64,000 bases of DNA from Candidatus Saganbacteria bacterium (GTDB lineage Bacteria > Margulisbacteria > WOR-1 > XYC2-FULL-46-14 > XYC2-FULL-37-10). Position numbers and translations under genes: made by a program. Positions 46,221 to 60,071 of the stretch are shown piece by piece. Each line of letters begins with the position of its first letter. The first letter of the stretch is position 1. Location: positions 21,417 to 85,416 of the forward strand of contig JACRPL010000006.1 in assembly GCA_016223245.1 (NCBI GenBank). The letters are read 5' to 3'. The notes below the pieces were generated by a model that was not told the origin of the DNA, did no database searches, and saw only the letters and a list, made by a program, of their open reading frames with translations.

Positions 46221-46814
46221 TTAAAACAACTTGCCTTTCAACATATAGCCGATCAGTGAAACATACTCCCAAACAACATACTGTGTATCTTCATGCCTGG
46301 TCCACCATTTATTCGGGTTGAATTCGCTTTTTTCTACAGGTGAAGCCATGACTTTTATGCCTTCTTTCTTGAAGAACTTCCGTGCGACTAGCCGAGACCT
46401 TCTAATATGGGTTGGAGATGTAACTAATATCACTTTTTTTGCGTCAATTTTCTTTAATATGAGCAGTGAAAACTTGATATCTTCAAACGTTGATCTTGAT
46501 CTGTCTTGCAATAAGACATCTTTTGCTGGGACGCCAAGGGATGTTGCCTGGTTCCTCATGTTTTCGGCATAAGTCAAATGCCATATTGCCGGCCCCCCGC
46601 TCATTAGGATCTTTGGCGCAAATCCTTTTTTATACAGATCAACGCCGTGAGCCGCCCTTTCACCGTTGCTGTCGCCCGCAAGCACAAGGATCACGTCGGA
46701 TTTTTCAAGTTTATCTCGGACATAAAGGAATTTTGCCATTCCGTTTAGAATGACAGGATGGAAAACAATTGCCGCAGTCATTAATATAAGGAAAACGATC
46801 AAACTTTTTTTCAT
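46221..46814 (-). CDS. DUF218 (SanA/YdcF/ElyC) family envelope protein.
   Basis: Signal/TM N-terminus and a DUF218-like core (...ILVLAGDSNGERAAHGVDLYKKGFAPKILMSGG...). Confidence 0.6.
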   Translation of the reverse strand: MKKSLIVFLILMTAAIVFHPVILNGMAKFLYVRDKLEKSDVILVLAGDSNGERAAHGVDLYKKGFAPKILMSGGPAIWHLTYAENMRNQATSLGVPAKDVLLQDRSRSTFEDIKFSLLILKKIDAKKVILVTSPTHIRRSRLVARKFFKKEGIKVMASPVEKSEFNPNKWWTRHEDTQYVVWEYVSLIGYMLKGKLF

Positions 46815-46825
46815 TTTAACCTCTT

Positions 46826-47218
46826 TCAGCTAAATGAGAATTTCTTATGGCCCAAATAACTTATAATAACATTTAGAAATATGAGCGGCACTTGTGCAAT
46901 GATAGGATTTATCCTCAAAAATTCAACAATAAGCGGCAGTAAGGCCAAGTTAACAACTATTGAGAATCCATAAACAAAATAAAACCTCATATATTCCTTA
47001 AGATACTTTCCTTTAGTTTTGAAAACGAATATTTTATAGCTTATGTAAGCGTTAGTGATACTGGCAATATTGCTTATAATGAAAAGAATAAGATAGTGCA
47101 TCTTTTCGGAGAATAGCCGGTACAGCAAAATAAATGCCAAATATCCAAATATCGTATTCCAGATCCCTGCCAAGAGGTAATTGATCTTTTCTTTATGGGT
47201 ATGGAAAAAAAGCCTCAT
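46826..47218 (-). CDS. GtrA-family small membrane protein, putative flippase for a lipid-linked sugar.
   Basis: 130 aa, four TM helices, GtrA-like. Directly upstream of a DPM1-like GT2. Confidence 0.6.
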   Translation of the reverse strand: MRLFFHTHKEKINYLLAGIWNTIFGYLAFILLYRLFSEKMHYLILFIISNIASITNAYISYKIFVFKTKGKYLKEYMRFYFVYGFSIVVNLALLPLIVEFLRINPIIAQVPLIFLNVIISYLGHKKFSFS

Positions 47219-47219
47219 C

Positions 47220-48152
47220 CTAGAAATTTATTCTTTCTTTTTCAATGACCAGAGGCCTTTTTAAGACTTGCGTATGAATGGAACCTATATATTCTCCGAT
47301 GATGCCGATGAAAAACAATTGTACGGCTGAAAAGAAAAAGACCCCGATGACCAATGGCGCAATCCCTACATTGAAATTATCCCAAAAGATGATCTTATAG
47401 ATAAAATATCCAATTGCCACAAGAATGCTGATTATTGAAACAAGGAAGCCGAGCATTGTCGCAAGCCTTAGAGGAACCCTTGAATGGTTTGTGATCCCAA
47501 GCATCGCCATGTCGTAAAGAGTGTAAAAATTATTTTTTGTGATGCCATGATCACGTTTCGGCTGGATATATTCAATTATAGCGATTTCAAAGCCTAAATC
47601 ACTAATGAGCCCTCTAAAATATGGATATGGGTCATTAAGCGAGCGTAAAATATCCATTACTTTTTTATCGTACAATCCGAATCCGGTAAAATTCCGTATC
47701 TGCTTAACTTCCGACAAGCTTTCGATAATCTTATAAAATAATTGTCTAATGCTGAACATAAACTTGGATTCTTTGCTTGCCTTCTTGACGCCAATTACCA
47801 CTTTAAACCCATCTTCCCATTTTTTTGCAAAATCCTTTATCATTTCTGGCGGGTCTTGAAGATCTGCAACAATTGAAATCACAGCATCTCCATGAGCCTG
47901 CAGAAGCGCATGGTAAGGCGATCTTATATGTCCGAAGTTGCGCGTATTTACGATGATCTTAACATTCTTGTCGGTTTTTGCGATATCTTTGAGAATTGCG
48001 ACCGTTCTATCACTAGAAGCATTGTCGATAAATATATGTTCGTATCGGTAATCTTTTAAATCGGATTGGAAAATATTTTTTACGGCAGAATATATCGCCT
48101 CGATATTTTTTTCTTCGTTGAAACACGCAGTGACTACGCTGATTAATTTCAC
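47220..48152 (-). CDS. GT2 polyprenyl-phosphate glycosyltransferase (DPM1/GtrB-like).
   Basis: MKLISVVTACFNEEKNI...DADLQDPPEMI with DxD-type motifs, plus a C-terminal membrane anchor. Confidence 0.85.
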   Translation of the reverse strand: MKLISVVTACFNEEKNIEAIYSAVKNIFQSDLKDYRYEHIFIDNASSDRTVAILKDIAKTDKNVKIIVNTRNFGHIRSPYHALLQAHGDAVISIVADLQDPPEMIKDFAKKWEDGFKVVIGVKKASKESKFMFSIRQLFYKIIESLSEVKQIRNFTGFGLYDKKVMDILRSLNDPYPYFRGLISDLGFEIAIIEYIQPKRDHGITKNNFYTLYDMAMLGITNHSRVPLRLATMLGFLVSIISILVAIGYFIYKIIFWDNFNVGIAPLVIGVFFFSAVQLFFIGIIGEYIGSIHTQVLKRPLVIEKERINF

Positions 48153-49213
48153 AATATAGCCTCCAATGCTTTTATGGCTTCAATTTTCGCAAGATCGTTA
48201 ACTTGTATCATCTTATGGTTTTCTTGCATCATTACAAGCGACAATCCTTCGCCTGTTCTTTTCTTATCCTTTTTCATGGCAGAGACTATTGCATTATGGT
48301 CGATCTTTAAGTCATTTAGATCGATCTTGACCACTGGAAGTAGAGCATTTTTAGATAAATCCTCCGATAACGTCATTGACATTAGGCCTCGATCGATAGC
48401 TACATGATTAGCTAACATTATACCAAGAACAACAGCTTGCCCATGAGGTATCTTATAATCTGTTGCGGTTTCCAATGCATGTCCGAAACAATGCCCAAAG
48501 TTCAGGATGTTCCTGCGGCCTTTATCAAATTCATCAGTTTCAATATATATTTTTTTTATTAATAGAGCCTCTCTGGTCATTTTACCGATTGTTATCAAAT
48601 CGCGTTCAAGTAACGGGCTCATTTTGGATTTGAGTTCAATTGTTTTACCGGTACCGCCGATCAAGAAGAGTTTAACCAACTCCCCGATCCCGCTTAAATA
48701 ATCGATATCAGTTAGTGTTGCCAAAAATTCAGGAATTATATATATCTCGGATGGGGGGTAAAAAGTTCCCAAAAGATTTTTGAATCCTTTATAGTTCAAT
48801 GAAGTTTTTGCCCCAATACAACTGTCGCATTGAGATAGCATGGTTGTAGGGAAAAAGATCCAATTAATTCCCCGATATATGATTGAAGCCGCAAATCCGG
48901 CAATATCCTGAAGAATACCCCCGCCTATAACAGCTAAAACAGTGTTTTTCTTTGAAGAGCGTTCAATTAAACTATCGACCAATATTTGAACGCCCTCAAA
49001 TGTTTTTTTATCTTCGCCTACTTCAAAAATAACCGCTTTTGAAGCGTCGATCTTTGAAAGCATGCTTTTATTATGTCGTTCCCAAACTTTTTTATCTATT
49101 ATGAAAAATGCTTCGTTCAATTCTGATATCTTGTCCAGTAGGTCTTTTGGAAATAAAAAATCTACGGTATAATCATTTAGTTTTGACTTGATCGAGAGAC
49201 CATCTATTGGCAT
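48149..49213 (-). CDS. 3-dehydroquinate synthase-like (sugar-phosphate cyclase superfamily) enzyme.
   Basis: GGG..D NAD motif (VIGGGILQD) and metal-binding His motifs (...NFGHCFGHALE...HGQAV). 354 aa. Confidence 0.8.
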   Translation of the reverse strand: MPIDGLSIKSKLNDYTVDFLFPKDLLDKISELNEAFFIIDKKVWERHNKSMLSKIDASKAVIFEVGEDKKTFEGVQILVDSLIERSSKKNTVLAVIGGGILQDIAGFAASIIYRGINWIFFPTTMLSQCDSCIGAKTSLNYKGFKNLLGTFYPPSEIYIIPEFLATLTDIDYLSGIGELVKLFLIGGTGKTIELKSKMSPLLERDLITIGKMTREALLIKKIYIETDEFDKGRRNILNFGHCFGHALETATDYKIPHGQAVVLGIMLANHVAIDRGLMSMTLSEDLSKNALLPVVKIDLNDLKIDHNAIVSAMKKDKKRTGEGLSLVMMQENHKMIQVNDLAKIEAIKALEAIL

Positions 49214-49863
49214 GTATAACCGCCGTCAATAATGATATTTTGGCCTGTAATATAAGTGTTTTTGTCCGAACAAAGAAAACAGACCAAATGTGCGATTTCA
49301 TCGATATTTGCTAAGCGACCAAGAGGGATCAGCTTTTTTATTGAAGCTATCTGTTCTTCGGAATTGTTTTGCCTGGTTAACGAAGTTTCAACAAATCCCG
49401 GAGATACGGAATTTACTAAAATACCCCTTTCCCCAAGTTCGATCGCAAGCGTTCTTGTCAATGCATTAAGTCCAGCCTTTGTCGCGGCATATACCCCTCT
49501 TCCGGGCTTTGAAACCTCACTCCAAATTGAACTAATATTAACGATGCGTCCTTTTCCCATCATAGGCACGATGCCCCTGATCAATCGTATTGGTGATGAC
49601 AAGTTTATTTTTATAGTCTCGTCGAGATCCTTATCGTCAATTTCAGAAATATTGCCGATTGGATTTATTCCCGCATTATTTACAAGAACATCAATTGATC
49701 CGGTTAATAAGGATATATAGTTAGCAACCGAAGAATTATCCGCAAGGTCCAATTCTTTTCGAGTCGGCGCAAGCACTGCAAAACCTTCTTTTTTTAAAAG
49801 ATCGGCAATTGCTTTGCCAATACCTCGCGACCCTCCGGTTACAAGCGCTTTTTTTCCGGTCAT
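49204..49863 (-). CDS. Short-chain dehydrogenase/reductase.
   Basis: TGGSRGIGKAIA glycine motif, NNAG, and a Y...K catalytic motif (YAATKAG). Confidence 0.8.
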   Translation of the reverse strand: MTGKKALVTGGSRGIGKAIADLLKKEGFAVLAPTRKELDLADNSSVANYISLLTGSIDVLVNNAGINPIGNISEIDDKDLDETIKINLSSPIRLIRGIVPMMGKGRIVNISSIWSEVSKPGRGVYAATKAGLNALTRTLAIELGERGILVNSVSPGFVETSLTRQNNSEEQIASIKKLIPLGRLANIDEIAHLVCFLCSDKNTYITGQNIIIDGGYTCQ

Positions 49864-50678
49864 TCGATGCTTCCTCCCGCGTCTTTAATTAATTTGTCGT
49901 ACCTGGATTGAAGCATTTCGATCCTAATTTTATCCTCTTCAAAGATCATGCCATAGAAATCGCGTTTGTTTTTCAACCACATAAGCTCGAAACCCACAGC
50001 CTTAAGTATCCCCTTATCCGCATTATCGTTTAAGGCTTCAGGGCATTTAAATATGACTTTGCGTGTTTCATATCTATCGAGCGCTCCGGTAGGTAGCTTT
50101 TTGAAAAATGGAAGTGACGCAGCTGAAACGCCTCCGCCAATAACACATTCAAGTTTTTTTTGTTTTGATTTAAGAAGCAATTCTTTTGCAACGTCGAATA
50201 TTTTATCTGAATTAATATCTTCACGGGTTAAACCCATAGACCCAGTCATATCAACTCGTCCTAATACTATGCCATCAAGTTCGGAAATGTTTGGAAGCTT
50301 GAGCATTTCGTCAAAATTATTGGAGCCTGTAATTGTTTCAATATTAATTAATAAAGAAACCCCATCTCTTTCATCTTTTGGGAATGCCAATTTTGCAGCT
50401 TGCAAATATTTCTTTAATGCATATTGCGATTCGATCATTGGAGCGACTATGCGAGCCACTCCTATCGATCTTGAGTCATACATATCTTTTATCGCTTCGC
50501 ACCCGCCTATTTTAATCGTAAGATCAAGGCCTGCTTTTGATATAACTTCTTTTAAACGCAAAGCTTCTTCGAGCCTGGTACCCTCTGCCTCAAATTCAGC
50601 CTTTATTCCAATGACGTGATGGTTTTCCTTAAGGTCCAAAAGGACCGAAACCATTTTTTTCTCTAAATTATTCATCAT
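49860..50678 (-). CDS. HpcH/HpaI-family aldolase or citrate-lyase-beta-like protein.
   Basis: TIM-barrel pyruvate-aldolase-like motifs (...GIVLGRVDMTGSMG...). 272 aa. Confidence 0.7.
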   Translation of the reverse strand: MMNNLEKKMVSVLLDLKENHHVIGIKAEFEAEGTRLEEALRLKEVISKAGLDLTIKIGGCEAIKDMYDSRSIGVARIVAPMIESQYALKKYLQAAKLAFPKDERDGVSLLINIETITGSNNFDEMLKLPNISELDGIVLGRVDMTGSMGLTREDINSDKIFDVAKELLLKSKQKKLECVIGGGVSAASLPFFKKLPTGALDRYETRKVIFKCPEALNDNADKGILKAVGFELMWLKNKRDFYGMIFEEDKIRIEMLQSRYDKLIKDAGGSIE

Positions 50679-52488
50679 TATCCTCCAATTCTTTTATCAA
50701 CATATTGCTTTTGAACTCTTCTCTTGGAAGGAACGGGAACATATCTTCCAATGGTTTTGATCTCATTTTACCGTTCTTTAGTTTAACAGAAGATAGCTTT
50801 GGTTCAAACCTGTAAGTAGGATCAAGAATGACCTCGATAACAGCTGGTCCGCGCTTATTAAGGATCGCCGCAATGTCATTCTTAAGTGATTTTTGATTTT
50901 TTATGGTAACAGCACTTATCCCGTAAGCTTTTGCAATTTTCGTAATATCCGGAAAAGTAACTCCGGTTTCCGGACAACAAGCAACTCGCCTCCCTTCAAA
51001 GAAAGAATCTTGAGTTTGTTTTATCGAGCAATAGCCCTGATTATTAAGAACAAATATCTTTATCGGAAGCTTAAGGCCTGCAACTGTTTGCAATTCCTGC
51101 ATATTCATTTGCAGACTGCCGTCGCCTGCAATACAGATAACCTCTTTTTTGTTTGCCGCAATACAAGCACCGATAGCAGCCGGCAAGTCGTATCCCATCG
51201 AGGCGCATCCCGAATTCCAGAACATCCTTTGATTTGGTTTAACAATTCCTGCTTGAAAAACCGATACACATGCCGTGCCATTTCCCGCCACAACAATTGC
51301 ATTAGATCTAAGCTGATTTGTTAGAACATCGATAAAATAATATGGGTTGATTGATTTCTTAAGTTTTTTATATTCCGGTAGTACAGTAGGATATTTCTTC
51401 TTGCGCTCTGTACACCAGATTAGCCATTCTTTGGGGATCGATATGTTTTTCCAGGCAATCGTTGTGTATAATGCCTCTAAGAAATATTTAGCATCGCAAT
51501 TTATTGCAATATCAGGTTTCAACGTAGGTTTATTAAGTTCTGTTGGATCAATATCTATTACTATCTTTTTTGCTTCTCTTGCGACAGTTTCCCAGTTATA
51601 ACTAACCTGCCTGATATTGTTCCTGGTCCCGATATATAATACCAGATCGGAGTTTTGGAGTGCAAAGTTTCCGGCTCTTGTTCCCACTGTTCCAATTCTT
51701 CCGATAAACAATGGATGATCCGAAGGAATTTGATCAAATCCATTAAAAGTTGAAAGGACAGGAATTCTTAGCTTTTCGATGACCTTTTTGAATATTTTTA
51801 GTGAGCCTGACAATCTTATCCCATGTCCTGCGACTATTACTGGTCTTTTAGCGTTTTTCAGCAATTCAATTGTTTTTGCAATCTTAGAATTTATTTCATC
51901 ATTGGCAAACTTGATCTCGTCTTCTTTTTTATCGTAGCCTGTCAAATTGTTCTCATCAACCATTGAAGACTGGACGTCAAGCGGCACATCTAACCAAACA
52001 GGCCCAGGACGGCCTGACATCGCCAAATAGAGAGCTTTTTCTAAATAGTACCTGATCTTATATGGATCTTCGACATATACTGCATATTTTGTAACCGGTT
52101 TTACAATGTCTACGATATTGATCTCCTGATCTCCTAATTGCCTTAATTTCTGATCAGGATAAGATTCAATTGTCGTTTCCCTCTTAACCTGCCCCGAAAT
52201 ATATATTACTGGAATTGAATCAAGCCATTGGCCTATCACGCCGGTCATGGTATTTGTTCCACCAGGTCCAGATGTTATGATAACGCAGCCGATCTTTCCG
52301 GAGACCCTAAAATATCCTTCTGCTCCGATCGCGGATGCTTGCTCATGATGGTTGCAAATATATCTGATTTTCTTGCTTTTGCCCACGGAATCATTTAAAT
52401 GCATAGCTCCGCCGCCTGAGATCATAAAAACGTCTTTTATCCCGTATTCTTCAAGCTTTTTTACTATGTAATCCGAAACTTTGATCAT
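50668..52488 (-). CDS. Thiamine-diphosphate-dependent enzyme of the acetolactate-synthase-large-subunit family (YerE-like).
   Basis: Three-domain ALS architecture. ThDP motif GDGSLQMNMQELQTV...NN. 606 aa. Confidence 0.85.
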   Translation of the reverse strand: MIKVSDYIVKKLEEYGIKDVFMISGGGAMHLNDSVGKSKKIRYICNHHEQASAIGAEGYFRVSGKIGCVIITSGPGGTNTMTGVIGQWLDSIPVIYISGQVKRETTIESYPDQKLRQLGDQEINIVDIVKPVTKYAVYVEDPYKIRYYLEKALYLAMSGRPGPVWLDVPLDVQSSMVDENNLTGYDKKEDEIKFANDEINSKIAKTIELLKNAKRPVIVAGHGIRLSGSLKIFKKVIEKLRIPVLSTFNGFDQIPSDHPLFIGRIGTVGTRAGNFALQNSDLVLYIGTRNNIRQVSYNWETVAREAKKIVIDIDPTELNKPTLKPDIAINCDAKYFLEALYTTIAWKNISIPKEWLIWCTERKKKYPTVLPEYKKLKKSINPYYFIDVLTNQLRSNAIVVAGNGTACVSVFQAGIVKPNQRMFWNSGCASMGYDLPAAIGACIAANKKEVICIAGDGSLQMNMQELQTVAGLKLPIKIFVLNNQGYCSIKQTQDSFFEGRRVACCPETGVTFPDITKIAKAYGISAVTIKNQKSLKNDIAAILNKRGPAVIEVILDPTYRFEPKLSSVKLKNGKMRSKPLEDMFPFLPREEFKSNMLIKELEDNDE

Positions 52489-53237
52489 ATTGATATAGTT
52501 ATCCCGTCTGTGGCGGCTATTGTATTCTTAAAGATATTTCTTACTTGTTTCTGTGCAGTTTTTCTTTCTTTAAGCGTTTGATATACTTCGGCGTCAAAAT
52601 GTGTAAGAACCAACTTCTTTGATTTTGAAACCTTTGCAATTTCTGCTGCTGTCGCGGGAGTTAAGTGCGGCCATTCGGAGTGGTCCATACCAAGCTTAAA
52701 TGCACATTCGGAGATGATAAGGTCTGATCTTTGAGCCAGCCTGATCGCATTATCGCAATACCCAGTATCGGTGATGTAACTTATTACTTTGCCCGAAAAA
52801 TTAAGCCTGTATCCATATGACGGGACAACATGCAATAATATCTTGTAGTCCTCTAAAAACGATATTTCTTTTGATCGTTTCTTTAAATCAACAATTTTAA
52901 CTTTTGTTTTAAGCAGATCAAGTGGCGCGGTATATGGCTTATTGATAAATTCATGAGCGGTCTTAACATAATTACCAGGCAGACAAAGCGAAATCCCCTG
53001 CTTAAAATTAAATTTTGCCAAAACATGAAGACCTATAACATGATCGAGATGGAAGTGGCTTATAAAAAGAAAGATCGGTTTTTTTGATCTAATATATTTA
53101 TCCAGTTTATAAATACCATTGCCAGCATCCAAAATAACGTATTCGTTAGGCGTTTCAATTAAAAGGCTTACGGTATTACCGCAATCGGTGTCATACCAAC
53201 CGTTCGTTCCCAGAAATGTGATCTTTATCTTTTGCAT
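52485..53237 (-). CDS. MBL-fold metallo-hydrolase.
   Basis: HFHLDHVIGL metal-binding motif. 250 aa. Confidence 0.75.
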   Translation of the reverse strand: MQKIKITFLGTNGWYDTDCGNTVSLLIETPNEYVILDAGNGIYKLDKYIRSKKPIFLFISHFHLDHVIGLHVLAKFNFKQGISLCLPGNYVKTAHEFINKPYTAPLDLLKTKVKIVDLKKRSKEISFLEDYKILLHVVPSYGYRLNFSGKVISYITDTGYCDNAIRLAQRSDLIISECAFKLGMDHSEWPHLTPATAAEIAKVSKSKKLVLTHFDAEVYQTLKERKTAQKQVRNIFKNTIAATDGITISI

Positions 53238-53248
53238 ATTAATCCCTT

Positions 53249-54127
53249 CTATTTATCAAAAAGCAATAGTTCTTTATCGATCTTACTCTTATTTTCAACA
53301 TACCAATCATATAATTTACGGATAGATTCTTCAATAGGCGTGAGCTTGAGGCCTTCAATCTCTGTTTTTAATCGTGAATTGTCGCCGCTGTATTCGGTCT
53401 CTTGACCTTCCTGTTGAATTTTTATCGGAAGGTCTTTTTTCGAGACTTTAAGCACGATCTTTGCAATTTCTTTTAGTTCGATAGATCTATCGGGTGCAAT
53501 ATTGTATGCTTTGTGCTTATTTGTACAAACAATGAAATGCTCAATAACTAAACATAAGTCATCAATACTAATATAATCGAATTTTCTGTTTTGCTTTATT
53601 GTGATAGGAAGATCGAATATTGTCTTGCATATCGCATTTGAGATGAATCTAATCGCATAATCCTCATATTTCCCAAAAACTCCAAAAGGCCTAAGTTCGA
53701 CAATGTTATCGGTTTTTTCTAAATACTTTGCGCAGAGATATTTTGAAAAGCCACCTTCATCATCTGGAACATTTACATCGAAATACTCTTCTTTCATTTT
53801 CGGCAGATAATGATCTATGCCATATACCAGGCCGGAGCTCAAAAAAATCATTTTCTTGAACTTTTTTTCGTTTCTTGCTATGTTGAAGAACATTCTTGTA
53901 TTTTGCTCTAATTGTTTTGAGGGATCTTTCGCGTTTCTATGTCCGGGGCGGACGGCGGAATGGACCATGATATCAATATTATTATTCTTAAAATAATTTT
54001 CTACAGCTATCGAATCAATTAAGTCTAGCTCAGCGCGTGTGGGTGATAAAATATCGTATTTTTCACCAAAATATTCGATCAAGTTCTTTCCCACAAAACC
54101 CGATCCGCCTGTAATAAGCAGTTTCAT
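53249..54127 (-). CDS. NAD(P)-dependent sugar-nucleotide reductase or epimerase, of the CDP-abequose/paratose synthase size class.
   Basis: MKLLITGGSGFVGKNL and a Y..AK catalytic motif. 292 aa. Immediately downstream of rfbH, as in enterobacterial ddh clusters. Confidence 0.75.
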   Translation of the reverse strand: MKLLITGGSGFVGKNLIEYFGEKYDILSPTRAELDLIDSIAVENYFKNNNIDIMVHSAVRPGHRNAKDPSKQLEQNTRMFFNIARNEKKFKKMIFLSSGLVYGIDHYLPKMKEEYFDVNVPDDEGGFSKYLCAKYLEKTDNIVELRPFGVFGKYEDYAIRFISNAICKTIFDLPITIKQNRKFDYISIDDLCLVIEHFIVCTNKHKAYNIAPDRSIELKEIAKIVLKVSKKDLPIKIQQEGQETEYSGDNSRLKTEIEGLKLTPIEESIRKLYDWYVENKSKIDKELLLFDK

Positions 54128-55467
54128 CGTTTTACTGCTTTTCTGATCTCATCCAACATGAAATCGATCATTTCTTTTGTCATTCCAGGATATACTCCAA
54201 CCCAAAAAGTATTATTCATGATAAGATCGGTATTTTTCAGATCGCCGACCACTCGATATCCTTTTTTATTCTTGCGCATTTCATCAAAACACGGATGCTT
54301 GGTCATATTCCCGGCAAAAAGCATCCTGGTTTGAATCCCTTTTGACTCGAGATGATGGACTATCTCATTTCTCGTAATACATGCGTCATCTTTTACGGTC
54401 AAAAGAAAACCAAACCAGCTGGGGAGAGAATTCCTTTCGGCTTTGGGAAGGATGAAAATATCATCAAGCTTTGACAGTCCATCACGAAGCATTTTCCAAT
54501 TTGCCCGCCGTGCTTTAATGAACGAGGGAAGTTTTTCCAACTGCGCGCATCCTATTGCCGCTTGCATATCAGTAACTTTTAGATTGTATCCGAAATGTGA
54601 ATATATATATTTATGGTCATATCCATACGGAAGTTCGCCTAATTGCCATTTGAAACGCTTTTTACAGGAATTATCTTGTCCGGATGGGCACCAGCAGTCC
54701 CTGCCCCAATCGCGGAATGAATTGACGATCTTATTTAGCATGGGATCATTTGTGTAAACTGCTCCGCCTTCGCCCATAGTTATTTGGTGCGCCGGGAAAA
54801 AGCTTGAAGTCGCTATATCCCCGAAAGTCCCGGTATAAGCCCATTTGCCATGAAGCTTATATTTAGAACCCAAAGAATCGCAATTATCTTCGATCGACCA
54901 AATTTTATGTTTGGAACAAAATTCTTTAACTTTCTGGATATTAAAAGGATTTCCAAGCGTATGGGCTATAATTACTGCTTTCGTTTTTTTCGACAACGCC
55001 GCTTCAAGCTGTACGCAATCAATGTTGTAGCTTGGGAGAGCGACATCAACAAATACAGGAACGGCGCCATATTGGATGATCGGTGAGATCGTTGTCGGAA
55101 ATCCTGCTGCTACCGTAATTACTTCATCGCCTTTCTTGATCCTTCTATCCCCGAGCTTTGGCGATGTGAGCGCCATAAAGGCCAATAAATTTGCGGATGA
55201 CCCCGAATTAACAAGAGAACAATATTTTACCCCGATAAATTTTGCGAAGCCTTGTTCGAATTTTTCCGCATATCTTCCCGTCGTTAGCCAAAAATCCAAA
55301 GATGAATCTATCAGATTTGAGATCTCTTTTTCATCATAAACTCGCCCGGCGTAAGGAATTTTGTCTCCAGCGGAATATTTGTGTTTCTTTTTCGATCTGT
55401 AAAAATCAATAGCCGCATTAATTGTTTTTTTTCTTAATTCCGCTTCATTTCCCATAATATCCCTCAA
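54124..55467 (-). CDS. rfbH: CDP-6-deoxy-D-xylo-4-hexulose 3-dehydrase (RfbH/DdhC, E1).
   Basis: DegT/DnrJ/EryC1 fold, at 447 aa with the RfbH-type size and N-terminal extension. Preceded by rfbF and rfbG. Confidence 0.85.
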   Translation of the reverse strand: MRDIMGNEAELRKKTINAAIDFYRSKKKHKYSAGDKIPYAGRVYDEKEISNLIDSSLDFWLTTGRYAEKFEQGFAKFIGVKYCSLVNSGSSANLLAFMALTSPKLGDRRIKKGDEVITVAAGFPTTISPIIQYGAVPVFVDVALPSYNIDCVQLEAALSKKTKAVIIAHTLGNPFNIQKVKEFCSKHKIWSIEDNCDSLGSKYKLHGKWAYTGTFGDIATSSFFPAHQITMGEGGAVYTNDPMLNKIVNSFRDWGRDCWCPSGQDNSCKKRFKWQLGELPYGYDHKYIYSHFGYNLKVTDMQAAIGCAQLEKLPSFIKARRANWKMLRDGLSKLDDIFILPKAERNSLPSWFGFLLTVKDDACITRNEIVHHLESKGIQTRMLFAGNMTKHPCFDEMRKNKKGYRVVGDLKNTDLIMNNTFWVGVYPGMTKEMIDFMLDEIRKAVKR

Positions 55468-56509
55468 TTTGCTTTAAACAAACCTCTCTGATATCTTTTC
55501 CGGCTGCATATGCTTTTGTGAAATCAATGACCATATCAAGCGCTTTTTCAAGGCCTAATTTTGGCCTCCATTTGAGCCTTGATCTGGATTTTGAGGCGTC
55601 AAGCATAAGATAATGCGCTTCATGGGGATGCTTGCCTTTTGCCATTTCATAACAAGCTCCATTTCCCCACTTTTTGCATAATTCTTTTGTAAGCCAAATA
55701 ACCGGCTTCGCGTCTTTTTTTTTGGGTCCAAAATTCCAAGCTTCGGCAAATTTGCCGGGTTTTTCGTACAATTTTCGCGCCAGCAGCAAATATCCGGTCA
55801 AAGGTTCCAATACATGCTGCCATGGCCTTACAGCTTTCGGGTTTCTTATAAGTATTTTCTCGCTTTTTGAAATTGCCCTAATAAAATCCGGAACAAGCCT
55901 GTCGCTTGCCCAATCTCCTCCGCCTATCACATTTCCGGCCCTTGCTGTTGCAATATTTAATCCGAAGGAATCCCTGTAAGACGCAGTAACTATCTCTGAA
56001 CAAGCTTTACTGCTTGAATATGGATCATATCCGCCTAGCGGGTCATTTTCTCTAAATCCCCTTGACCCTTGCCCCGATTTCCGCATCGGGGCTTGCCCCT
56101 TGTTCTCATATACTTTATCGGTCGTAATATTTATTGCTGCCTTAACGCTATTGCATGCTCTGACCGCCTCTAATAAATTCACAGTACCAAAAATATTTAT
56201 TTCATAAGTTTCGACCGGGATAACGTAAGAATCTCGGACTATGGGCTGTGCCGCCATATGGATGACTATTTCCGGTTGAGCCTTTTTAATTTCAGCTTTT
56301 ATCCGATCTTTATCCCTGATATCGGCAATGATAGATCTTACGGATTTATCTAAATTGCAAAGATCGTACAAGCATGGTTCAGTCGACGGATTTAAAGCGT
56401 AGCCCGTAATATTTGCGCCGAAATGATCTAACATCAGGCAAAGCCATGAGCCCTTAAAACCGGTATGACCTGTTATGAAGACTCTCTTATCTTTCCAAAA
56501 ATTTGTCAT
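55445..56509 (-). CDS. rfbG: CDP-glucose 4,6-dehydratase.
   Basis: MTNFWKDKRVFITGHTGFKGSWL and a YSSSKA catalytic motif. 354 aa. Confidence 0.9.
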   Translation of the reverse strand: MTNFWKDKRVFITGHTGFKGSWLCLMLDHFGANITGYALNPSTEPCLYDLCNLDKSVRSIIADIRDKDRIKAEIKKAQPEIVIHMAAQPIVRDSYVIPVETYEINIFGTVNLLEAVRACNSVKAAINITTDKVYENKGQAPMRKSGQGSRGFRENDPLGGYDPYSSSKACSEIVTASYRDSFGLNIATARAGNVIGGGDWASDRLVPDFIRAISKSEKILIRNPKAVRPWQHVLEPLTGYLLLARKLYEKPGKFAEAWNFGPKKKDAKPVIWLTKELCKKWGNGACYEMAKGKHPHEAHYLMLDASKSRSRLKWRPKLGLEKALDMVIDFTKAYAAGKDIREVCLKQIEGYYGK

Positions 56510-56515
56510 TTGACA

Positions 56516-57295
56516 TTAACCCCACACTTTCCAGGGAGCTTTGCCCGAATCCCATAAACTTTCGAGTATTTTCTTTTCCCTCAATGTGTCCATCGGCTGC
56601 CAGAAACCCGTATGTTTATAAGACATAAGCTGTCCATCTTTTGTGATATTCCGAACAGTATCCTCCTCAAAAGGTATGATCTCGTCCTTTATATAATCCA
56701 GGACTTTGGGTTCCAGGACAAAAAATCCGCCATTGATCCACGAAGTATTGCCTTCCGCTTTCTCCTGGAATTTGTAAACCCGATTATCGTCTTTTATGTT
56801 CAATGCTCCAAACCGCCCAATAGGCCTTACGGCGGTCACGGTTGCAAGCTTGCCGTGGGTTTTATGGAAATTTACCAATGCTTTGATATCAATATCCCCA
56901 ACGCCATCTCCATAGGTAAGCATAAAAGCCTTATTGTCCAAATATTTTCCGGCCCTTTTTATCCTTCCCGCGGTCGAAGTCTCGATCCCGGTATCAACAA
57001 GCGTCACTCGCCATGGTTCTGCCGTATTAGTTTGGATAATTGTTTTTTGGGAGCCTGAACTGAAATCGAAAGTAACGTCGGATTCATGCAAAAAGTAATT
57101 GGCAAAATATTCTTTTATCTGATAGCCCTTGTAACCCAAACATACGACGAAATCGTTGAACCCAAAATGGGAATAAAGCTTCATGATATGCCAAAGGATA
57201 GGCTTGTCGCCTATTTCAAGCATTGGTTTTGGCTTCAATGACGATTCTTCGCCAATTCTTGTCCCTAAACCTCCCGCAAGGATCATTACCTTCAT
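56516..57295 (-). CDS. rfbF: Glucose-1-phosphate cytidylyltransferase.
   Basis: MKVMILAGGLGTRIGEESSLKPKPMLEIGDKPILWHIM... is near-canonical RfbF. 259 aa. Confidence 0.9.
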   Translation of the reverse strand: MKVMILAGGLGTRIGEESSLKPKPMLEIGDKPILWHIMKLYSHFGFNDFVVCLGYKGYQIKEYFANYFLHESDVTFDFSSGSQKTIIQTNTAEPWRVTLVDTGIETSTAGRIKRAGKYLDNKAFMLTYGDGVGDIDIKALVNFHKTHGKLATVTAVRPIGRFGALNIKDDNRVYKFQEKAEGNTSWINGGFFVLEPKVLDYIKDEIIPFEEDTVRNITKDGQLMSYKHTGFWQPMDTLREKKILESLWDSGKAPWKVWG

Positions 57296-57319: not shown

Positions 57320-58816
57320 TTATCCGATTTTTTCATACAAAGATACTGTTATCCTATATGAGCCCTTCTTGTGCCTATTTATCGGCAATTTTGAAACTAA
57401 AGTGCTTTCGTAGGGGACGAATTTCCGGATCATTTTCAGCCGATAATTATTACCTAGGCTAAGTTTTATGCTTTCAATATATCCTTTCGGGAAAACCCGC
57501 TCATCGACAATATTTGTTATGAGCCAGATCCTTTTGGCTATCAATTCGGAAGGCTTTAGGAGCGCATGTCCATTTACAAGCGAAACCATTTCGTAATCAC
57601 CCGGAAGATAATACTTTAAGATATTATATGTAATATGCCTATTTGTTGCGGCAATTAGATCGCCTTTTAAATGTTCTTTTTCTATTATTTGAGAGACTTC
57701 CCTCCATGGCTCGATCTGGTTTGAATTATGGTATTCATTAAATGTGAAATAATTGGCGATCGAAATACTTTGAAATAAAAGGATCAGCCCAAATAAAATA
57801 TAGAAAATGACCGGATTTTTTATACGCGACAGGGAAATCCCAAGCAAGGCAATATAAAATGGCAATGTAAAGATGAGGTATTTTGGCATTGTCGACGGTA
57901 AAATAGATGCTATAACTATAGGCATTACAAGAAATATCATCATGTACACGTTTTTTTCATCTTTCGATCCAATGAATTGAAATATCAACAAGGATCCAAT
58001 AATTATTAACGATGGAATTACAATAATGTTCCAAGGTGCGACCGTCTCACCCAAGGCAAGCACAAAGAAGATCAATGGCAATTTTAATGTTGGGGGGAAC
58101 GTGGAAAACGCCATATCCGGGGTCCCGGAAATAACGGCCATGGCCGCATGAATGATGATCTTAAAATAAAGAGGGAAAATTAGAATTGAAACAATAAGCA
58201 AAAAGCCAAGCGCTAAACGAGAGTTGGCATCTTTTTTTCTTAGGTAAATGATCGCGCAAAGTACAAATTGGCTAAATATCATCAATGCCGAATAAATTTG
58301 GGTCAAACCTAACAGCAAAGTGCATAAAATGAAAACAATTGAGGCTTTAATTGTCACTTGCTTGTACAACAACCTAAAGAGCGACCAGGCCGATAAAATA
58401 GATAACAATAGCATTAGCCCATACAACCTAATTTCGTGAGAATGCATAATGGCCAATGGTGAAAAAGCTAAAAGGCCGGCACAAACTAAGGCGGCCCTAT
58501 CGCTTATTGTATCTTTTACGAAAAGGTACATAGCTATCATAGAAAATATGCCAATGATAACTGAAAGCATGCGCAACCCGTATTCAGTAGGTCCGAAAAC
58601 TTTTATCCATAAAAACAATATCGCAAAATATGCCGGAAGATGGGATTCGATTGCCAATGCCTTGATATCAAAATGGCCGGATACGGAATAAATACTATGC
58701 GCTTCATCACCCCAAAGGCTTCGGAATATCGGGTCATAGATCCTGATAAAAGAGCCCAATAACAGGATAAATAAGAAGATCATGAATATTCTGTTTGCTT
58801 TAATCGCCGAAAACAT
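57320..58816 (-). CDS. GT-C fold membrane glycosyltransferase (GT39/ArnT/PMT-like).
   Basis: Polytopic, with a DE motif in the first periplasmic loop (SLWGDEAHS). 498 aa. Confidence 0.6.
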   Translation of the reverse strand: MFSAIKANRIFMIFLFILLLGSFIRIYDPIFRSLWGDEAHSIYSVSGHFDIKALAIESHLPAYFAILFLWIKVFGPTEYGLRMLSVIIGIFSMIAMYLFVKDTISDRAALVCAGLLAFSPLAIMHSHEIRLYGLMLLLSILSAWSLFRLLYKQVTIKASIVFILCTLLLGLTQIYSALMIFSQFVLCAIIYLRKKDANSRLALGFLLIVSILIFPLYFKIIIHAAMAVISGTPDMAFSTFPPTLKLPLIFFVLALGETVAPWNIIVIPSLIIIGSLLIFQFIGSKDEKNVYMMIFLVMPIVIASILPSTMPKYLIFTLPFYIALLGISLSRIKNPVIFYILFGLILLFQSISIANYFTFNEYHNSNQIEPWREVSQIIEKEHLKGDLIAATNRHITYNILKYYLPGDYEMVSLVNGHALLKPSELIAKRIWLITNIVDERVFPKGYIESIKLSLGNNYRLKMIRKFVPYESTLVSKLPINRHKKGSYRITVSLYEKIG

Positions 58817-60071
58817 TATATTTTAACTCCTTCAATGTTTTAATGCCTTCTTCCAAGACCTTCCGGTCGCCATAGATTTGCTCGGATGACTTGATCGACA
58901 TCCTATCGCCTTTCAACCTAAGCTCTTTTTCGATCGGCGCGAATTTCTTTATTTTATAGATCCCCAGTGCTATCCCGCTTGCCCAATTTGAAATAATGAC
59001 CAAAGTGAATATTAATATTGCTGGCTTTAGATAATGGTCGATTTTTTTTGTTCTAATTAAATATAAGAGAAAAAGCCAAATAAAGCCCAAGAAATAGAAC
59101 ATTTGGAACATATGGTATCTCGATAATAACGCGAACTTGATCCCAAAATTAACCCTCCCAATAGATGTAATGAAAGCCGTCAAAATAGAATAGAACATCA
59201 TTGAATACGGTATGATCGTTTCTTTATGGCCATATTTATACGTTTTGAACACTAATACAGCACCGATAACAAAGAAAATAAAGCCCCAAATTCCAGCGAT
59301 CAGAAGCAATATCGGCAATAAATGACCTACTTTGTAAGTAGGAATAAAATTAGCCCCGAAATAAACGAAAAAGTATTCGATGATTTTAATAGTATTTGTG
59401 AGCGGTAAGGCCGTATTGTTTTTGGTCAGGACATTCTCGGAAAAATAGAGCATATATGTTAATATGCACGCTGAAAAGAACATAAGCATGTTTTGAATGT
59501 TTTTCTTTGGAGAAAATATTATGCCGGGAAGACATGCGATCCAGCCCAAAAGGCCGGTCAAAAAAGAGAAGGAAGCTATGACCAATGAAATTATCATGAT
59601 CAAGAGCGACCTCAAATTTGATCCTGTATTGTACGAATTGATAATAGCTAAAAAAACAAAAACGAGGCATAGGAGGTATGCCGAAAAACTGAATAATATA
59701 TTTTCATGATGTATCGGGGAGTATTGGGCCAATAACGCAAAAAAGAAAAGTATTCTCGCACTTTTATTGCTAATATTCTTTGAAAATGAATTATATATAA
59801 GAAGCATTAACATTGAAAACAATAGAAGAGATGCAAAAGTCTCGTATTTTAAATTCCACTGGCTTATATGGGCCAAAAAGACGGTTATCAAATTTGGGAA
59901 AAATACCCGGTGCTCACTTACCCTTGCCCAAAGATTTTGAATATTTGGTTGTTTTATTATATGGATAAAAGACCATTGGTCGGCGATCGGAATATTAGGC
60001 GTGAAAGTCAGGACATAGATCGATAATAATATAAAAACAATAAAAAATATAGTTTTTTGTATAGAGCTCAT
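58800..60071 (-). CDS. Polytopic membrane protein, possibly a second GT-C-type transferase or a polymerase.
   Basis: 423 aa with 10 or more hydrophobic segments. No soluble domain. Confidence 0.5.
   Translation of the reverse strand: MSSIQKTIFFIVFILLSIYVLTFTPNIPIADQWSFIHIIKQPNIQNLWARVSEHRVFFPNLITVFLAHISQWNLKYETFASLLLFSMLMLLIYNSFSKNISNKSARILFFFALLAQYSPIHHENILFSFSAYLLCLVFVFLAIINSYNTGSNLRSLLIMIISLVIASFSFLTGLLGWIACLPGIIFSPKKNIQNMLMFFSACILTYMLYFSENVLTKNNTALPLTNTIKIIEYFFVYFGANFIPTYKVGHLLPILLLIAGIWGFIFFVIGAVLVFKTYKYGHKETIIPYSMMFYSILTAFITSIGRVNFGIKFALLSRYHMFQMFYFLGFIWLFLLYLIRTKKIDHYLKPAILIFTLVIISNWASGIALGIYKIKKFAPIEKELRLKGDRMSIKSSEQIYGDRKVLEEGIKTLKELKYNVFGD

Follow-up and report, generated by a model that had tools for sequence, protein, structure and literature searches.

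A conserved bacterial operon that probably makes an acyl-branched CDP-3,6-dideoxyhexose, with an optional module related to 3-dehydroquinate synthase

YerE-like enzymes place acyl branches on CDP-4-keto-3,6-dideoxyglucose, and in the gene clusters for acyl-branched sugars an aldolase, a YerE-like enzyme and a reductase accompany the genes for that nucleotide sugar, as described in the available portions of Steitz et al. 2022 (PMC9306805). The known pathways given there are those for yersiniose (YerE/YerF), erwiniose (ErwE/F/I/J), caryophyllose (MMAR_2331/2332) and gastriose (MyGE/MygI/MygF); their aldolases are of BphI/HMGL type, as is ErwI, or of aldolase/citrate-lyase type, as is MMAR_2331. 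The DNA analysed here, called the window, is a stretch of 64,000 nucleotides from a Candidatus Saganbacteria bacterium. Like those clusters, it encodes genes for CDP-4-keto-3,6-dideoxyglucose, a YerE-like carboligase and a pyruvate aldolase, with an NAD(P)H reductase (assigned by position) and a glycosyltransferase in the same operon. Unlike them, it adds a DHQS-superfamily enzyme and a dedicated FabG-like SDR, neither of which appears in those portions of the published descriptions (PMC9306805); its aldolase comes from an HpcH-fold family that is highly conserved and very divergent; and its sugar is apparently delivered by a GtrB, GtrA and GT-C set. In contrast to the complete Steitz scheme, no E3/FNR-like reductase gene was found in the 64-kb window. 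The block fits the published scheme for acyl-branched sugars, which runs from aldolase through ThDP carboligase to reductase.

An earlier note on this DNA had singled out four genes, for a DHQS-like enzyme, an SDR, an HpcH/HpaI aldolase and an MBL hydrolase. All four are present on the minus strand where it placed them, and their Pfam domains bear out the enzyme identities it proposed; the interval holds five genes, however, and the largest, for a 606-aa ThDP enzyme, had been overlooked. Neighbouring genes in the interval overlap at start and stop by 4-11 nt, an indication of one operon. Most likely they are the side-chain half of a conserved minus-strand operon spanning about 46.8-58.8 kb, a co-directional run that opens with the PMT_2 GT-C gene (Table 1). 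Because the DUF218/ElyC-like gene adjoins the cassette in the window alone, homologs being absent from all 68 other genome loci, its membership is doubtful.

Table 1. Genes of the operon and its flank, with positions in the window and supporting profile matches
Feature	Position	Strand	Evidence
GT-C membrane glycosyltransferase (PMT_2 / ArnT-like)	57320..58816	-	PF13231, 34.9 bits
RfbF-like glucose-1-phosphate cytidylyltransferase	56516..57295	-	NTP_transferase domain
RfbG-like CDP-glucose 4,6-dehydratase	55445..56509	-	extended-SDR / GDP_Man_Dehyd domains
RfbH (E1), CDP-6-deoxy-4-keto-hexose 3-dehydrase	54124..55467	-	NF011936, 735.8 bits vs cut-off 423
Extended-SDR, 292 aa, candidate YerF-like reductase	53249..54127	-	PF01370, 75 bits
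MBL-fold hydrolase (RNase Z / PhnP-like phosphodiesterase type)	52485..53237	-	PF12706, 52.7 bits
ThDP enzyme, 606 aa, YerE/JanthE type (predicted)	50668..52488	-	TPP_enzyme_N/M/C domains
Divergent HpcH/HpaI-fold class II (pyruvate) aldolase, 271 aa	49860..50675	-	PF03328, 31.4 bits, cut-off 25
FabG-like classical SDR, 219 aa	49204..49863	-	adh_short_C2, 187 bits
DHQS-superfamily enzyme, TIGR04425-like	48149..49213	-	PF01761, 110.6 bits; PF24621, 95.3 bits
GT2 polyprenyl-phosphate glycosyltransferase (GtrB / ArnC / PgfS-like)	47220..48152	-	PF00535, 87 bits
GtrA-family small membrane protein, putative polyprenyl-P-sugar flippase	46826..47218	-	PF04138, 68 bits
DUF218 / ElyC-like protein	46221..46814	-	PF02698, 86 bits

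Two sets of loci were compared with the window: one from 68 other genomes in more than ten phyla, anchored on the DHQS-like gene, and one from 80 metagenome contigs, anchored on the aldolase. The conserved unit in the 149 related loci, from more than ten phyla, consists of RfbF-RfbG-RfbH, the reductase, the ThDP enzyme, the aldolase, the SDR and the DHQS-like gene; a GtrB-like GT2 and GtrA often come next. Among the cultured carriers are Geobacter sp. AOG1, Selenomonas artemidis, Sulfuriferula multivorans and Effusibacillus consociatus. Around the DHQS-like gene, the SDR was found in 65 of 68 loci, the ThDP enzyme in 58, RfbG in 43, the aldolase in 41, RfbF in 38 (at 47-70% identity), RfbH and the 292-aa reductase in 36 each, the GT2 in 32 (following the DHQS-like gene in 28-32 loci) and a GtrA homolog in 21. 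Around the metagenome aldolases, the ThDP enzyme occurs in 49/53 loci and RfbH in 16/22. An FNR-like gene of 240 aa follows RfbH in 10 related loci. The window's linkage of the ThDP gene with RfbF, RfbG and RfbH in one operon likewise recurs in related loci. The assertion that the dideoxyhexose route fails to explain the flagged block is contradicted by these counts and by the YerE/JanthE likeness of the ThDP enzyme; since RfbF-RfbG-RfbH share the conserved unit, the block is an extension of the CDP-3,6-dideoxyhexose route and does not stand apart from it.

The ThDP enzyme carries domains PF02776, PF00205 and PF02775. Its best solved relative is JanthE of Janthinobacterium sp. HH01 (PDB 8RPH/8RPI/8RPJ), with 425 bits for 8RPH compared with 286 for PpYerE (5AHK) and at most 272 for acetolactate synthases, and the alignment to 8RPH is full length (residues 2-596), C-terminal extension included. 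In that alignment the window enzyme has the canonical GDG cofactor motif, whereas JanthE has CDG. Its closest solved relatives mark it as a YerE/JanthE-type enzyme, predicted to be a ketone-accepting carboligase. The physiological substrates of JanthE are not known (PMC12188165), and the likeness therefore defines no product. The gene for the 292-aa extended SDR, a protein with no specific NCBIfam match and no close solved homolog, immediately precedes the ThDP gene in most loci; from its position we infer a YerF-like reductase of the branch ketone, although it could instead be a plain 4-ketoreductase yielding an ordinary dideoxyhexose.

For the aldolase, the best reading is still the one first put forward, a predicted condensation of pyruvate with an aldehyde that extends a sugar. 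The protein passes the PF03328 gathering score, and its AF2 model (pLDDT 95), a PEP/pyruvate TIM barrel, has its best Foldseek matches among HpaI aldolases (3qz6, 7et9 and 4b5w; E about 1e-8), at a TM of about 0.55 and just 12-14% identity. Homologs number more than 7000, and among the 120 matches listed identity is 72-85%. All of 36 homologs share E113, D142 and R69, residues within the Pfam-aligned region; in HpaI we take Glu149 and Asp175 to be metal ligands and Arg70 to be catalytic. At 17 loci the HpcH-like gene is replaced, by an HMGL-type aldolase in 12 and a NeuB-type synthase in five. The sole reaction common to the three types is that of an aldehyde with pyruvate or PEP to give a 4-hydroxy-2-oxo-acid, and the replacements support 2-oxo-acid formation as the role of this step. 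HMGL-type aldolases normally take small unphosphorylated aldehydes.

Taken together, the operon probably, by a modest balance of likelihood, makes a CDP-activated C4-acyl-branched 3,6-dideoxyhexose that is delivered through a polyprenyl-phosphate carrier. Homology and synteny show RfbF, RfbG and RfbH to be the predicted source of CDP-4-keto-3,6-dideoxy-D-glucose, with an aldolase and a ThDP enzyme of YerE/JanthE type as their invariant partners. By analogy with erwiniose, caryophyllose and gastriose, the aldolase would convert pyruvate and an aldehyde to a 4-hydroxy-2-oxo-acid donor; the ThDP enzyme would decarboxylate this donor and join the resulting acyl anion to the nucleotide sugar at its C4 ketone, and the 292-aa SDR would reduce the branch ketone. 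The GT2, the GtrA-family protein and the GT-C transferase, all within the operon, form a Gtr/Arn-type component set, the GT2 scoring 188.7 bits with NF047588 PgfS (under the cut-off of that model) and 107.6 bits with ArnC. Analogy suggests that the GtrB-like GT2 would load the sugar onto undecaprenyl phosphate, that GtrA would flip it, and that the PMT_2 GT-C protein, a candidate periplasmic transferase for polyprenyl-P-linked sugar, would transfer it. Unlike in Gtr and Arn systems, the donor here would be a CDP-linked branched dideoxyhexose, not UDP-Glc or UDP-Ara4FN.

Like AroB, and like EEVS, DDGS and DOIS, the DHQS-like protein has the two-domain fold of the superfamily (N-terminal Rossmann-like and C-terminal helical domains, both found), a GGGxxxD NAD site with accompanying His motifs, a Glu/His/His metal site and phosphate-binding residues; the segment IGGGILQDIAGF aligns with DHQS 'GGGVIGD'. 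Unlike aroB, its gene sits in glycan cassettes and not in shikimate operons. To judge by profile scores, TIGR04425, a 'hypothetical equivalog' family named 'AroB-related putative sugar phosphate phospholyase (cyclizing)', is clearly the best fit: the window protein scores 398.9 bits, 1.1 bits under the cut-off of 400, with related loci of group A at 391-398 and of groups B and C at 448-473. Against the aroB equivalog (TIGR01357) it reaches 249.9 bits, and five relatives 239-272, versus a cut-off of 305; it is not a plain AroB paralog, an identity that the earlier note had set against its own reading. The NCBI label of the protein is '3-dehydroquinate synthase'.

Thirteen DHQS active-site positions (A. 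nidulans numbering) were checked; all are identical in the window protein and kept in at least 58/60 family members. They comprise E194, H271 and H287, which we take to be metal ligands, and R130, D146, K152, N162, K197, K250, R264, N268, H275 and K356, presumably binders of phosphate or substrate, with K250 and R264 the presumed carboxylate-binding pair. EEVS, DDGS and EVS cyclases, and DOIS, are not known to have the carboxylate-binding residues of DHQS. With all 13 residues kept, the protein looks DAHP-type and not EEVS- or DOIS-like. The family also has six substitutions of its own at positions invariant among five DHQS structures, such as a change from S to C at residue 132, next to the Asp146 equivalent (130), and an F in place of K within the DEKE motif. 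An EEVS, DOIS or DDGS identity, the parallel first drawn for this protein, is not supported, since true DHQS structures are its best PDB relatives (100-162 bits, versus 96 for DOIS 2d2x, 92 for ValA 4p53 and 70 for DDGS 5tpr) and the equivalents of K250 and R264 are retained.

The 219-aa SDR, whose best PDB matches are FabG, is present or absent together with the DHQS-like gene and directly adjoins it in groups A and B; we propose that it is a ketoreductase acting on the product of the DHQS-like enzyme. The pair is an optional add-on module: it occurs in about 60% of cassettes, and about 40% of cassettes with aldolase and ThDP enzyme do without it. Aldolase and ThDP sequences show no detectable difference between cassettes with and without the pair. 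A plausible user of 2-oxo-acids adjoins the pair in every context: the ThDP enzyme in groups A and C, and in group B a D-2-hydroxyacid dehydrogenase, a CMP-ulosonate-type cytidylyltransferase or both. Where cassettes are split (L009, L023 and L037), the aldolase remains with SDR-DHQS. Homologs of CMP-ulosonate synthetase (CTP_transf_3) were found in no loci outside the divergent group B, which makes a free KDO- or sialic-type form of the C8/C9 ulosonic sugar once suggested for this locus unlikely.

What the pair contributes is a matter of several competing readings. DHQS chemistry would begin with an NAD+- and metal-dependent transient oxidation, followed by beta-elimination of the terminal phosphate, and would act on a DAHP-like phosphorylated 3-deoxy-2-ulosonic acid supplied by the aldolase. 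Our preferred reading, held tentatively and at somewhat less than even confidence, is that the pair is an eliminase plus ketoreductase that deoxygenates the chain end and leaves the 2-oxo-acid intact for use by the ThDP enzyme; the outcome would be a caryophyllose-like, methyl-terminated polyol branch. We know of no precedent for a non-cyclising enzyme in the DHQS superfamily. The main alternative, doubtful but the nearest competitor, is that the chain is cyclised into a cyclohexane ring. As the active-site residues of DHQS are all conserved, full cyclisation is the default expectation; in the DHQS mechanism the ring closes largely spontaneously, and once it has closed no 2-oxo-acid would remain for the ThDP enzyme. 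These points count against the preferred reading.

Cyclisation could also follow coupling. We think it possible, though rather doubtful, that the TIGR04425 enzyme runs a complete DHQS-type reaction on an aldolase-derived, phosphate-terminated chain, most plausibly after the ThDP step. In its explicit form, which we judge slightly less likely still, the ThDP enzyme would first join a DAHP-like 2-oxo-acid that bears a phosphate to the CDP-keto-sugar; closure of the branch onto the 1'-ketone by the DHQS-like enzyme would follow, and the SDR would reduce the ring ketone, giving a 3,6-dideoxyhexose with a polyhydroxycyclohexyl group at C4. The coupled branch would be a DAHP analogue in which sugar C4 stands in for the carboxylate; the complete catalytic set and the 'cyclizing' activity predicted by the NCBIfam curators agree with this. 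Since the aldolase and ThDP enzyme show no detectable change in the cassettes without the pair, tailoring before coupling fits no better than tailoring after it. Yet the K250 and R264 equivalents are invariant even though this substrate would have no carboxylate, and they are just as invariant in those group-B loci where a ThDP enzyme is missing; the 292-aa reductase, a usual neighbour of the ThDP gene, would be a rival for the 1'-ketone; and we know of no natural sugar with a C4-linked polyhydroxycyclohexyl group. If the reading were true, many cultured and uncultured bacteria would carry a 12-carbon surface sugar with a polyhydroxycyclohexane ring C-C-bonded to C4 of a 3,6-dideoxyhexose, the pathway would be the first nucleotide-sugar pathway with a sugar-phosphate cyclase, and carbocycle-bearing units of a new class would be added to the known glycans.

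The independent cyclitol suggested by the earlier note fares less well and now seems quite unlikely. Under it, the aldolase would make a DAHP-like acid that the DHQS-like enzyme and SDR convert to a quinate-like acid, a separate glycan component, while RfbFGH and the 292-aa reductase would make an ordinary 3,6-dideoxyhexose. The DAHP-type active site, the tight sub-block of aldolase, SDR and DHQS-like gene, and the possible 4-ketoreductase role of the 292-aa SDR all suit this scheme, but it leaves the YerE/JanthE-like ThDP enzyme, which accompanies the aldolase more constantly than any other partner, without a role, has no enzyme in the cassette that could activate a cyclitol acid or attach it, and does not explain the specific tie to the rare RfbH pathway.

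More improbable again is direct action of the aldolase on the nucleotide sugar, with addition of pyruvate to the C4 ketone to give a shewanellose-like 3-carboxy-2-oxopropyl branch, the tethered 2-oxo-acid then being processed by the ThDP and DHQS-like enzymes and the SDR. In its favour is Novosphingobium humi, where the order is PMT_2 - RfbF - RfbG - HpcH-like - GT2 and no ThDP enzyme, RfbH or DHQS-like gene lies within 14 kb, so that the aldolase might act directly on the keto-sugar. This is one species with a homolog 45% identical to the window aldolase, however, and the addition would consume the very ketone that defines YerE-type acceptor chemistry. C3 is deoxygenated by RfbH, which would make DHQS-type chemistry on the sugar itself impossible, and we know of no NeuB-type or HMGL-type enzyme that adds to ketones. 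That the DHQS-like protein is a housekeeping AroB paralog for aromatic amino acids, in a glycan locus by chance, is very improbable despite its full catalytic set and NCBI name, given its sub-threshold aroB score and its fit to TIGR04425, the start/stop overlaps with neighbouring glycan genes, and the recurrence of the gene in the same cassette across more than ten phyla, a Saccharibacteria MAG included.

The flagged genes had been taken for a block of four. The DHQS-like, SDR, aldolase and ThDP genes co-occur far more consistently than the MBL gene, which is present in roughly 10% of cassettes and was counted in 1/68 genome loci and 8/80 metagenome loci; the hydrolase is an occasional accessory, not a conserved member. 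Its protein gives partial matches to RNase Z and PhnP profiles, and among PDB entries it best matches 6kns, a putative metal-dependent hydrolase. For six of the eight metagenome loci that have it, the gene is next to the ThDP and reductase genes, at a distance of 1.6-3.5 kb on the upstream side of the aldolase.

The block lies within a long run of genes, all read from the minus strand, in which adjacent starts and stops overlap by 4-11 nt (see the table). The same gene order is found on a Logan contig, and the window's DHQS-like protein is 100% identical to a Saganbacteria protein at NCBI. The four genes that the earlier note had listed at 48149-53237, for a DHQS-like protein, an SDR, an HpcH/HpaI aldolase and an MBL-fold hydrolase, are real and correctly placed, and the GGGxxxD and His-rich metal site motifs are present; that inventory left out the largest gene of the interval, which encodes a ThDP enzyme. 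The wider neighbourhood, with an initiating sugar transferase, a Wzy_C-TPR protein, GT1 and GT2 enzymes, GDP-mannose dehydratase and RmlC/RmlD-like genes, is a surface-glycan locus.

Genes of the operon in the window, with the number of loci in which each has a relative (genome loci anchored on the DHQS-like gene, by tblastn; assessable metagenome loci anchored on the aldolase gene)
Feature	Position	Strand	Profile match	DHQS-anchored genome loci	Aldolase-anchored metagenome loci
PMT_2 GT-C transferase	57320-58816	-			
RfbF-like cytidylyltransferase	56516-57295	-		38/68	
RfbG-like CDP-glucose 4,6-dehydratase	55445-56509	-		43/68	
RfbH	54124-55467	-	NF011936, 736 bits	36/68	16/22
292-aa extended SDR	53249-54127	-		36/68	
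MBL-fold hydrolase	52485-53237	-		1/68 (window's own contig not counted)	
606-aa ThDP enzyme	50668-52488	-		58/68	49/53
HpcH-like protein	49860-50675	-		41/68	
FabG-like SDR	49204-49863	-		65/68	32/51
DHQS-like protein	48149-49213	-			27/45
GtrB/ArnC-like GT2	47220-48152	-		32/68	
GtrA	46826-47218	-		21/68	
DUF218	46221-46814	-			

Co-occurrence was counted from two anchors. We fetched 69 genome loci, each encoding a relative of the DHQS-like protein, from Margulisbacteria, Elusimicrobia, Desulfobacterota/Geobacter, Nitrospirota, Chloroflexi, Actinobacteria, Firmicutes, Negativicutes, Helicobacter, Planctomycetes, Alpha- and Betaproteobacteria, Saccharibacteria and others, and searched them by tblastn with the window's proteins, counts being out of 68. 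The reciprocal test took the aldolase as anchor in 80 metagenome contigs, where only loci with enough flanking sequence were assessable. Genes are usually arranged as RfbF-RfbG-RfbH-(FNR-like)-reductase-ThDP-aldolase-SDR-DHQS-GT2-GtrA. An MBL gene occurs in eight of the aldolase-anchored loci, and in six of these it lies 1.6-3.5 kb upstream of the aldolase gene, beside the ThDP and reductase genes. Counts from both anchors thus identify the aldolase and the ThDP enzyme as the invariant core, linked to CDP-3,6-dideoxyhexose genes, with the FabG-like SDR and DHQS-like protein as a strict pair in about 60% of cassettes and the MBL protein as an occasional accessory. The repeated company of RfbF, RfbG and RfbH with the ThDP enzyme contradicts the view in the earlier note that the dideoxyhexose route does not explain the block.

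Searches returned thousands of DHQS-like homologs and more than 7000 homologs of the aldolase, whose large family is strongly conserved (120 listed at 72-85% identity); hosts include Margulisbacteria, Elusimicrobia, Geobacter relatives, Chloroflexi, Actinobacteria, Firmicutes, Negativicutes, Helicobacter, Planctomycetes and Saccharibacteria. Only a few organisms are known to make sugars branched by ThDP-dependent acyl transfer; the cassette is widespread, and supplies both gene context and cultured carriers for identifying the sugar. Negativicutes-type cassettes (loci L045, L049 and L053, e.g. L053:9490-9951) recurrently carry a gene for a 153-aa glyoxalase/VOC-superfamily protein beside the ThDP gene; in L045 and L053 it separates the ThDP gene from the DHQS-like gene, and in L049 it lies downstream of the SDR gene.

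In the PDB, the ThDP enzyme matches 8RPH best (425 bits, aligned end to end) and then 5AHK (286 bits), the latter of which we take to be the YerE of Pseudomonas protegens; all acetolactate synthases score lower. 8RPH is the YerE-like enzyme JanthE, whose physiological substrates are unknown (PMC12188165), and PpYerE and JanthE are the two solved YerE-like structures (review PMC12247030). Enzymes of this kind transfer an acyl anion from a 2-oxo-acid to the C4 ketone of CDP-4-keto-3,6-dideoxy-D-glucose (PMC9306805; PMC12247030). For erwiniose, caryophyllose and gastriose, Steitz et al. 2022 (PMC9306805) describe a clustered aldolase of BphI/HMGL type (ErwI) or aldolase/citrate-lyase type (MMAR_2331) that makes a 4-hydroxy-2-oxo-acid, a ThDP-dependent coupling, and a reductase that completes the branch. 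Clustered aldolase, ThDP enzyme and reductase are likewise all present in the window's operon. A bioinformatic survey is cited as listing more than 200 YerE-like clusters, and YerE-like enzymes are sought as biocatalysts for chiral tertiary alcohols. In one Elusimicrobiota locus (L012:3568-8064), two ThDP-enzyme paralogs flank the reductase gene and a NeuB-type synthase replaces the aldolase.

From its position beside the ThDP gene, we infer that the 292-aa SDR is a YerF-like reductase; family profiles and the PDB gave it no specific family match and no close solved homolog. No E3-type reductase for RfbH is encoded within the window; ten related loci have a 240-aa FNR-like gene after RfbH, in the E3 slot. 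The PDB search found no specific functional match for either the FabG-like SDR or the MBL protein, the latter resembling RNase Z and PhnP-type phosphodiesterases. The GtrB-like GT2, GtrA and PMT_2 GT-C proteins suggest that undecaprenyl phosphate would receive the sugar, which would then be flipped and transferred outside the cytoplasm.

The aldolase has a weak HpcH Pfam match (31 bits) and only marginal PDB matches by sequence (E 0.08), and its fold was therefore compared through an AF2 model (pLDDT 95) and Foldseek. In the PDB its closest folds are those of HpcH/HpaI class II pyruvate aldolases (12-14% identity, TM about 0.55), with SbnG, CitE/RipC, malyl-CoA lyase and the barrel of pyruvate kinase behind them, and the modelled protein is a remote member of the HpcH/HpaI fold. 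Where the HpcH-like gene is missing, its slot is filled in twelve loci by a 534-aa protein whose HMGL domain resembles 4-hydroxy-2-oxovalerate aldolase, and in five by a NeuB-family synthase. Enzymes of the NeuB type run in the synthetic direction only, and to our knowledge the one reaction common to the HpcH-like, HMGL and NeuB families is the joining of an aldehyde with pyruvate or PEP into a 4-hydroxy-2-oxo-acid. That three unrelated families with this single reaction in common fill the slot is good evidence for a 2-oxo-acid-forming step there. The C-terminal ~270 residues of the 534-aa aldolase have no Pfam match (loci L015, L019 and L041-L053, e.g. L015:11077-12705).

A plasmid database search with the aldolase matched only Novosphingobium and Ilyobacter. 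On the Novosphingobium humi megaplasmid NZ_CP103869.1 (L071:10359-18820), a 45%-identical HpcH-like gene directly follows RfbF-RfbG; PMT_2 lies upstream, a GtrB-like GT2 lies downstream, and genes for a ThDP enzyme, RfbH or a DHQS-like protein are absent within 14 kb. This aldolase may add pyruvate directly to a CDP-4-keto-6-deoxy sugar, giving a shewanellose-like branch. The 37%-identical family member on pILYOP01 of Ilyobacter polytropus (L072:14001-14774) has genes for aconitase, isocitrate/isopropylmalate dehydrogenase, PrpF and a 2-hydroxyacid dehydrogenase as neighbours, a context that places the family also in organic-acid metabolism.

The DHQS-like protein scores 398.9 bits against TIGR04425 (cut-off 400), a hypothetical equivalog named 'AroB-related putative sugar phosphate phospholyase (cyclizing)', and 249.9 against aroB (cut-off 305); TIGR04425 is its best-fitting family, and it is not the plain AroB paralog named as a refuter in the earlier note. 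Relatives from other locus groups score 391-473 bits against TIGR04425, and none reaches the aroB cut-off. Another refuter named there, a glycerol-1-phosphate dehydrogenase, is rejected, with 20.9 bits against a cut-off of 413. A phosphonate pathway (PEP mutase, Ppd, Fe-ADH) was also rejected: the TIM-barrel protein matches HpaI aldolases over PEP mutase, the ThDP enzyme is of the full three-domain ALS/YerE type, and the DHQS-like protein is not an Fe-ADH. Three candidate-phylum MAGs, of Saccharibacteria (L063), Wirthbacteria (L021) and Gastranaerophilales (L013), hold parts of the cassette, the DHQS-like gene among them; if these reduced genomes have no aromatic amino-acid synthesis, as expected, a housekeeping AroB role is disfavoured.

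Among solved structures the protein is closest to true DHQSs (162 bits at most, against 96 for DOIS, 92 for the EEVS ValA and 70 for DDGS), and it does not look EEVS- or DOIS-like. Aligned with DHQS structures, essentially all 60 family members share invariant counterparts of R130, D146, K152, N162, E194, K197, K250, R264, N268, H271, H275, H287 and K356, residues whose active-site roles we take from the Aspergillus nidulans DHQS structure. Only six positions invariant in five DHQS structures are replaced across the family, among them an S-to-C change at 132, next to residue 130 (the Asp146 equivalent), and a K-to-F change in 'DEKE'. Conservation of the active-site set implies that the expected substrate would be DAHP-like, a 3-deoxy-2-ulosonate with terminal phosphate and carboxylate, and would not be sedoheptulose-7-P or glucose-6-P.

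For the DHQS-like/SDR pair, the reading we favour, held tentatively and at somewhat under even chances, is terminal deoxygenation, in which phosphate elimination and ketoreduction proceed without ring closure and the 2-oxo-acid is kept, much as a dehydratase and a reductase are paired in 6-deoxyhexose synthesis. The pair always lies beside an enzyme plausibly using a 2-oxo-acid, which in locus groups A and C of the DHQS-like gene is the ThDP enzyme, and where cassettes are split the aldolase remains with SDR-DHQS; both patterns argue that the 2-oxo-acid is kept. Deoxygenation would yield a methyl-terminated polyol branch, a known type exemplified by caryophyllose. It would also be the first non-cyclising, phosphate-eliminating 'deoxygenase' in the DHQS superfamily.

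We consider it rather unlikely that the DHQS-like enzyme instead makes a carbocycle on the branch, for which speak the conserved full DHQS catalytic set and the fact that ring closure in DHQS is largely spontaneous. A cyclised free acid is unusable as a ThDP donor, so cyclisation would have to follow coupling or feed a separate product. Aldolase and ThDP sequences from loci with and without DHQS/SDR are interleaved, with no discriminating columns and every DHQS-less sequence having its nearest neighbour in a DHQS-containing locus; this fits tailoring after coupling, of which it is a weak indication, coming from nine reliable DHQS-less loci whose missing genes could lie elsewhere in those genomes. 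A carbocycle built onto a nucleotide sugar would be a new feat for a sugar-phosphate cyclase. For caryose, a carbocyclic LPS sugar, biosynthesis is stated as unknown (PMC9092360). An independent cyclitol, the separate product that such cyclisation would feed, is quite improbable, and the remaining probability belongs to other outcomes. Deoxygenation and carbocycle formation would each be new enzymology and would give a function to TIGR04425, a curated family. The general aldolase-ThDP-reductase scheme is already published; the literature searched links no DHQS-family enzyme with branched sugars, YerE-type pathways or O-antigens, and the presence of one in the scheme is without precedent there.

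A divergent branch, group B (36-38% identity, TIGR04425 448-473 bits; Rhodospirillales, Magnetospirillum and others), occupies loci L057, L058, L062, L068, L069 and L070 (e.g. L070:6761-12006). Its conserved set comprises CTP_transf_3 (a CMP-ulosonate-type cytidylyltransferase), a GFO/IDH/MocA oxidoreductase, SDR, DHQS-like protein and D-2-hydroxyacid dehydrogenase, in some loci joined by SIS_2 and HAD genes; it includes no ThDP enzyme and may direct synthesis of a modified ulosonic acid activated with CMP. The D-2-hydroxyacid dehydrogenase in six loci and the cytidylyltransferase in three are suggestive of a 2-oxo-acid product of the pair, though the contexts are heterogeneous. HAD-family phosphatase genes lie directly upstream of NeuB-SDR-DHQS in L034 (2361-3017) and of SDR-DHQS in L057 (7577-8248), consistent with a phosphorylated ulosonic-acid intermediate.

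Elsewhere in the window, a 423-aa ORF without Pfam match lies between the PMT_2 gene and a GT2 gene (58800-60071); of the 68 other genome loci, just one (L003, 32% identity) holds a relative. The same gene run encodes, at its upstream end, a B12-binding radical-SAM enzyme beside an RmlC-like 3,5-epimerase and an epimerase/dehydratase (62392-63744, 61844-62422, 60937-61974); these genes could specify a second unusual sugar modification, e.g. C-methylation. A 778-aa fusion joins a Wzy_C (O-antigen ligase/polymerase) membrane domain to a long C-terminal TPR array (39935-42271). An 816-aa protein (36157-38607, plus strand) combines Big_13 and glucodextranase-B domains with, at its C-terminus, a CHU_C domain for type IX secretion sorting, which is unexpected outside Bacteroidota-like lineages.
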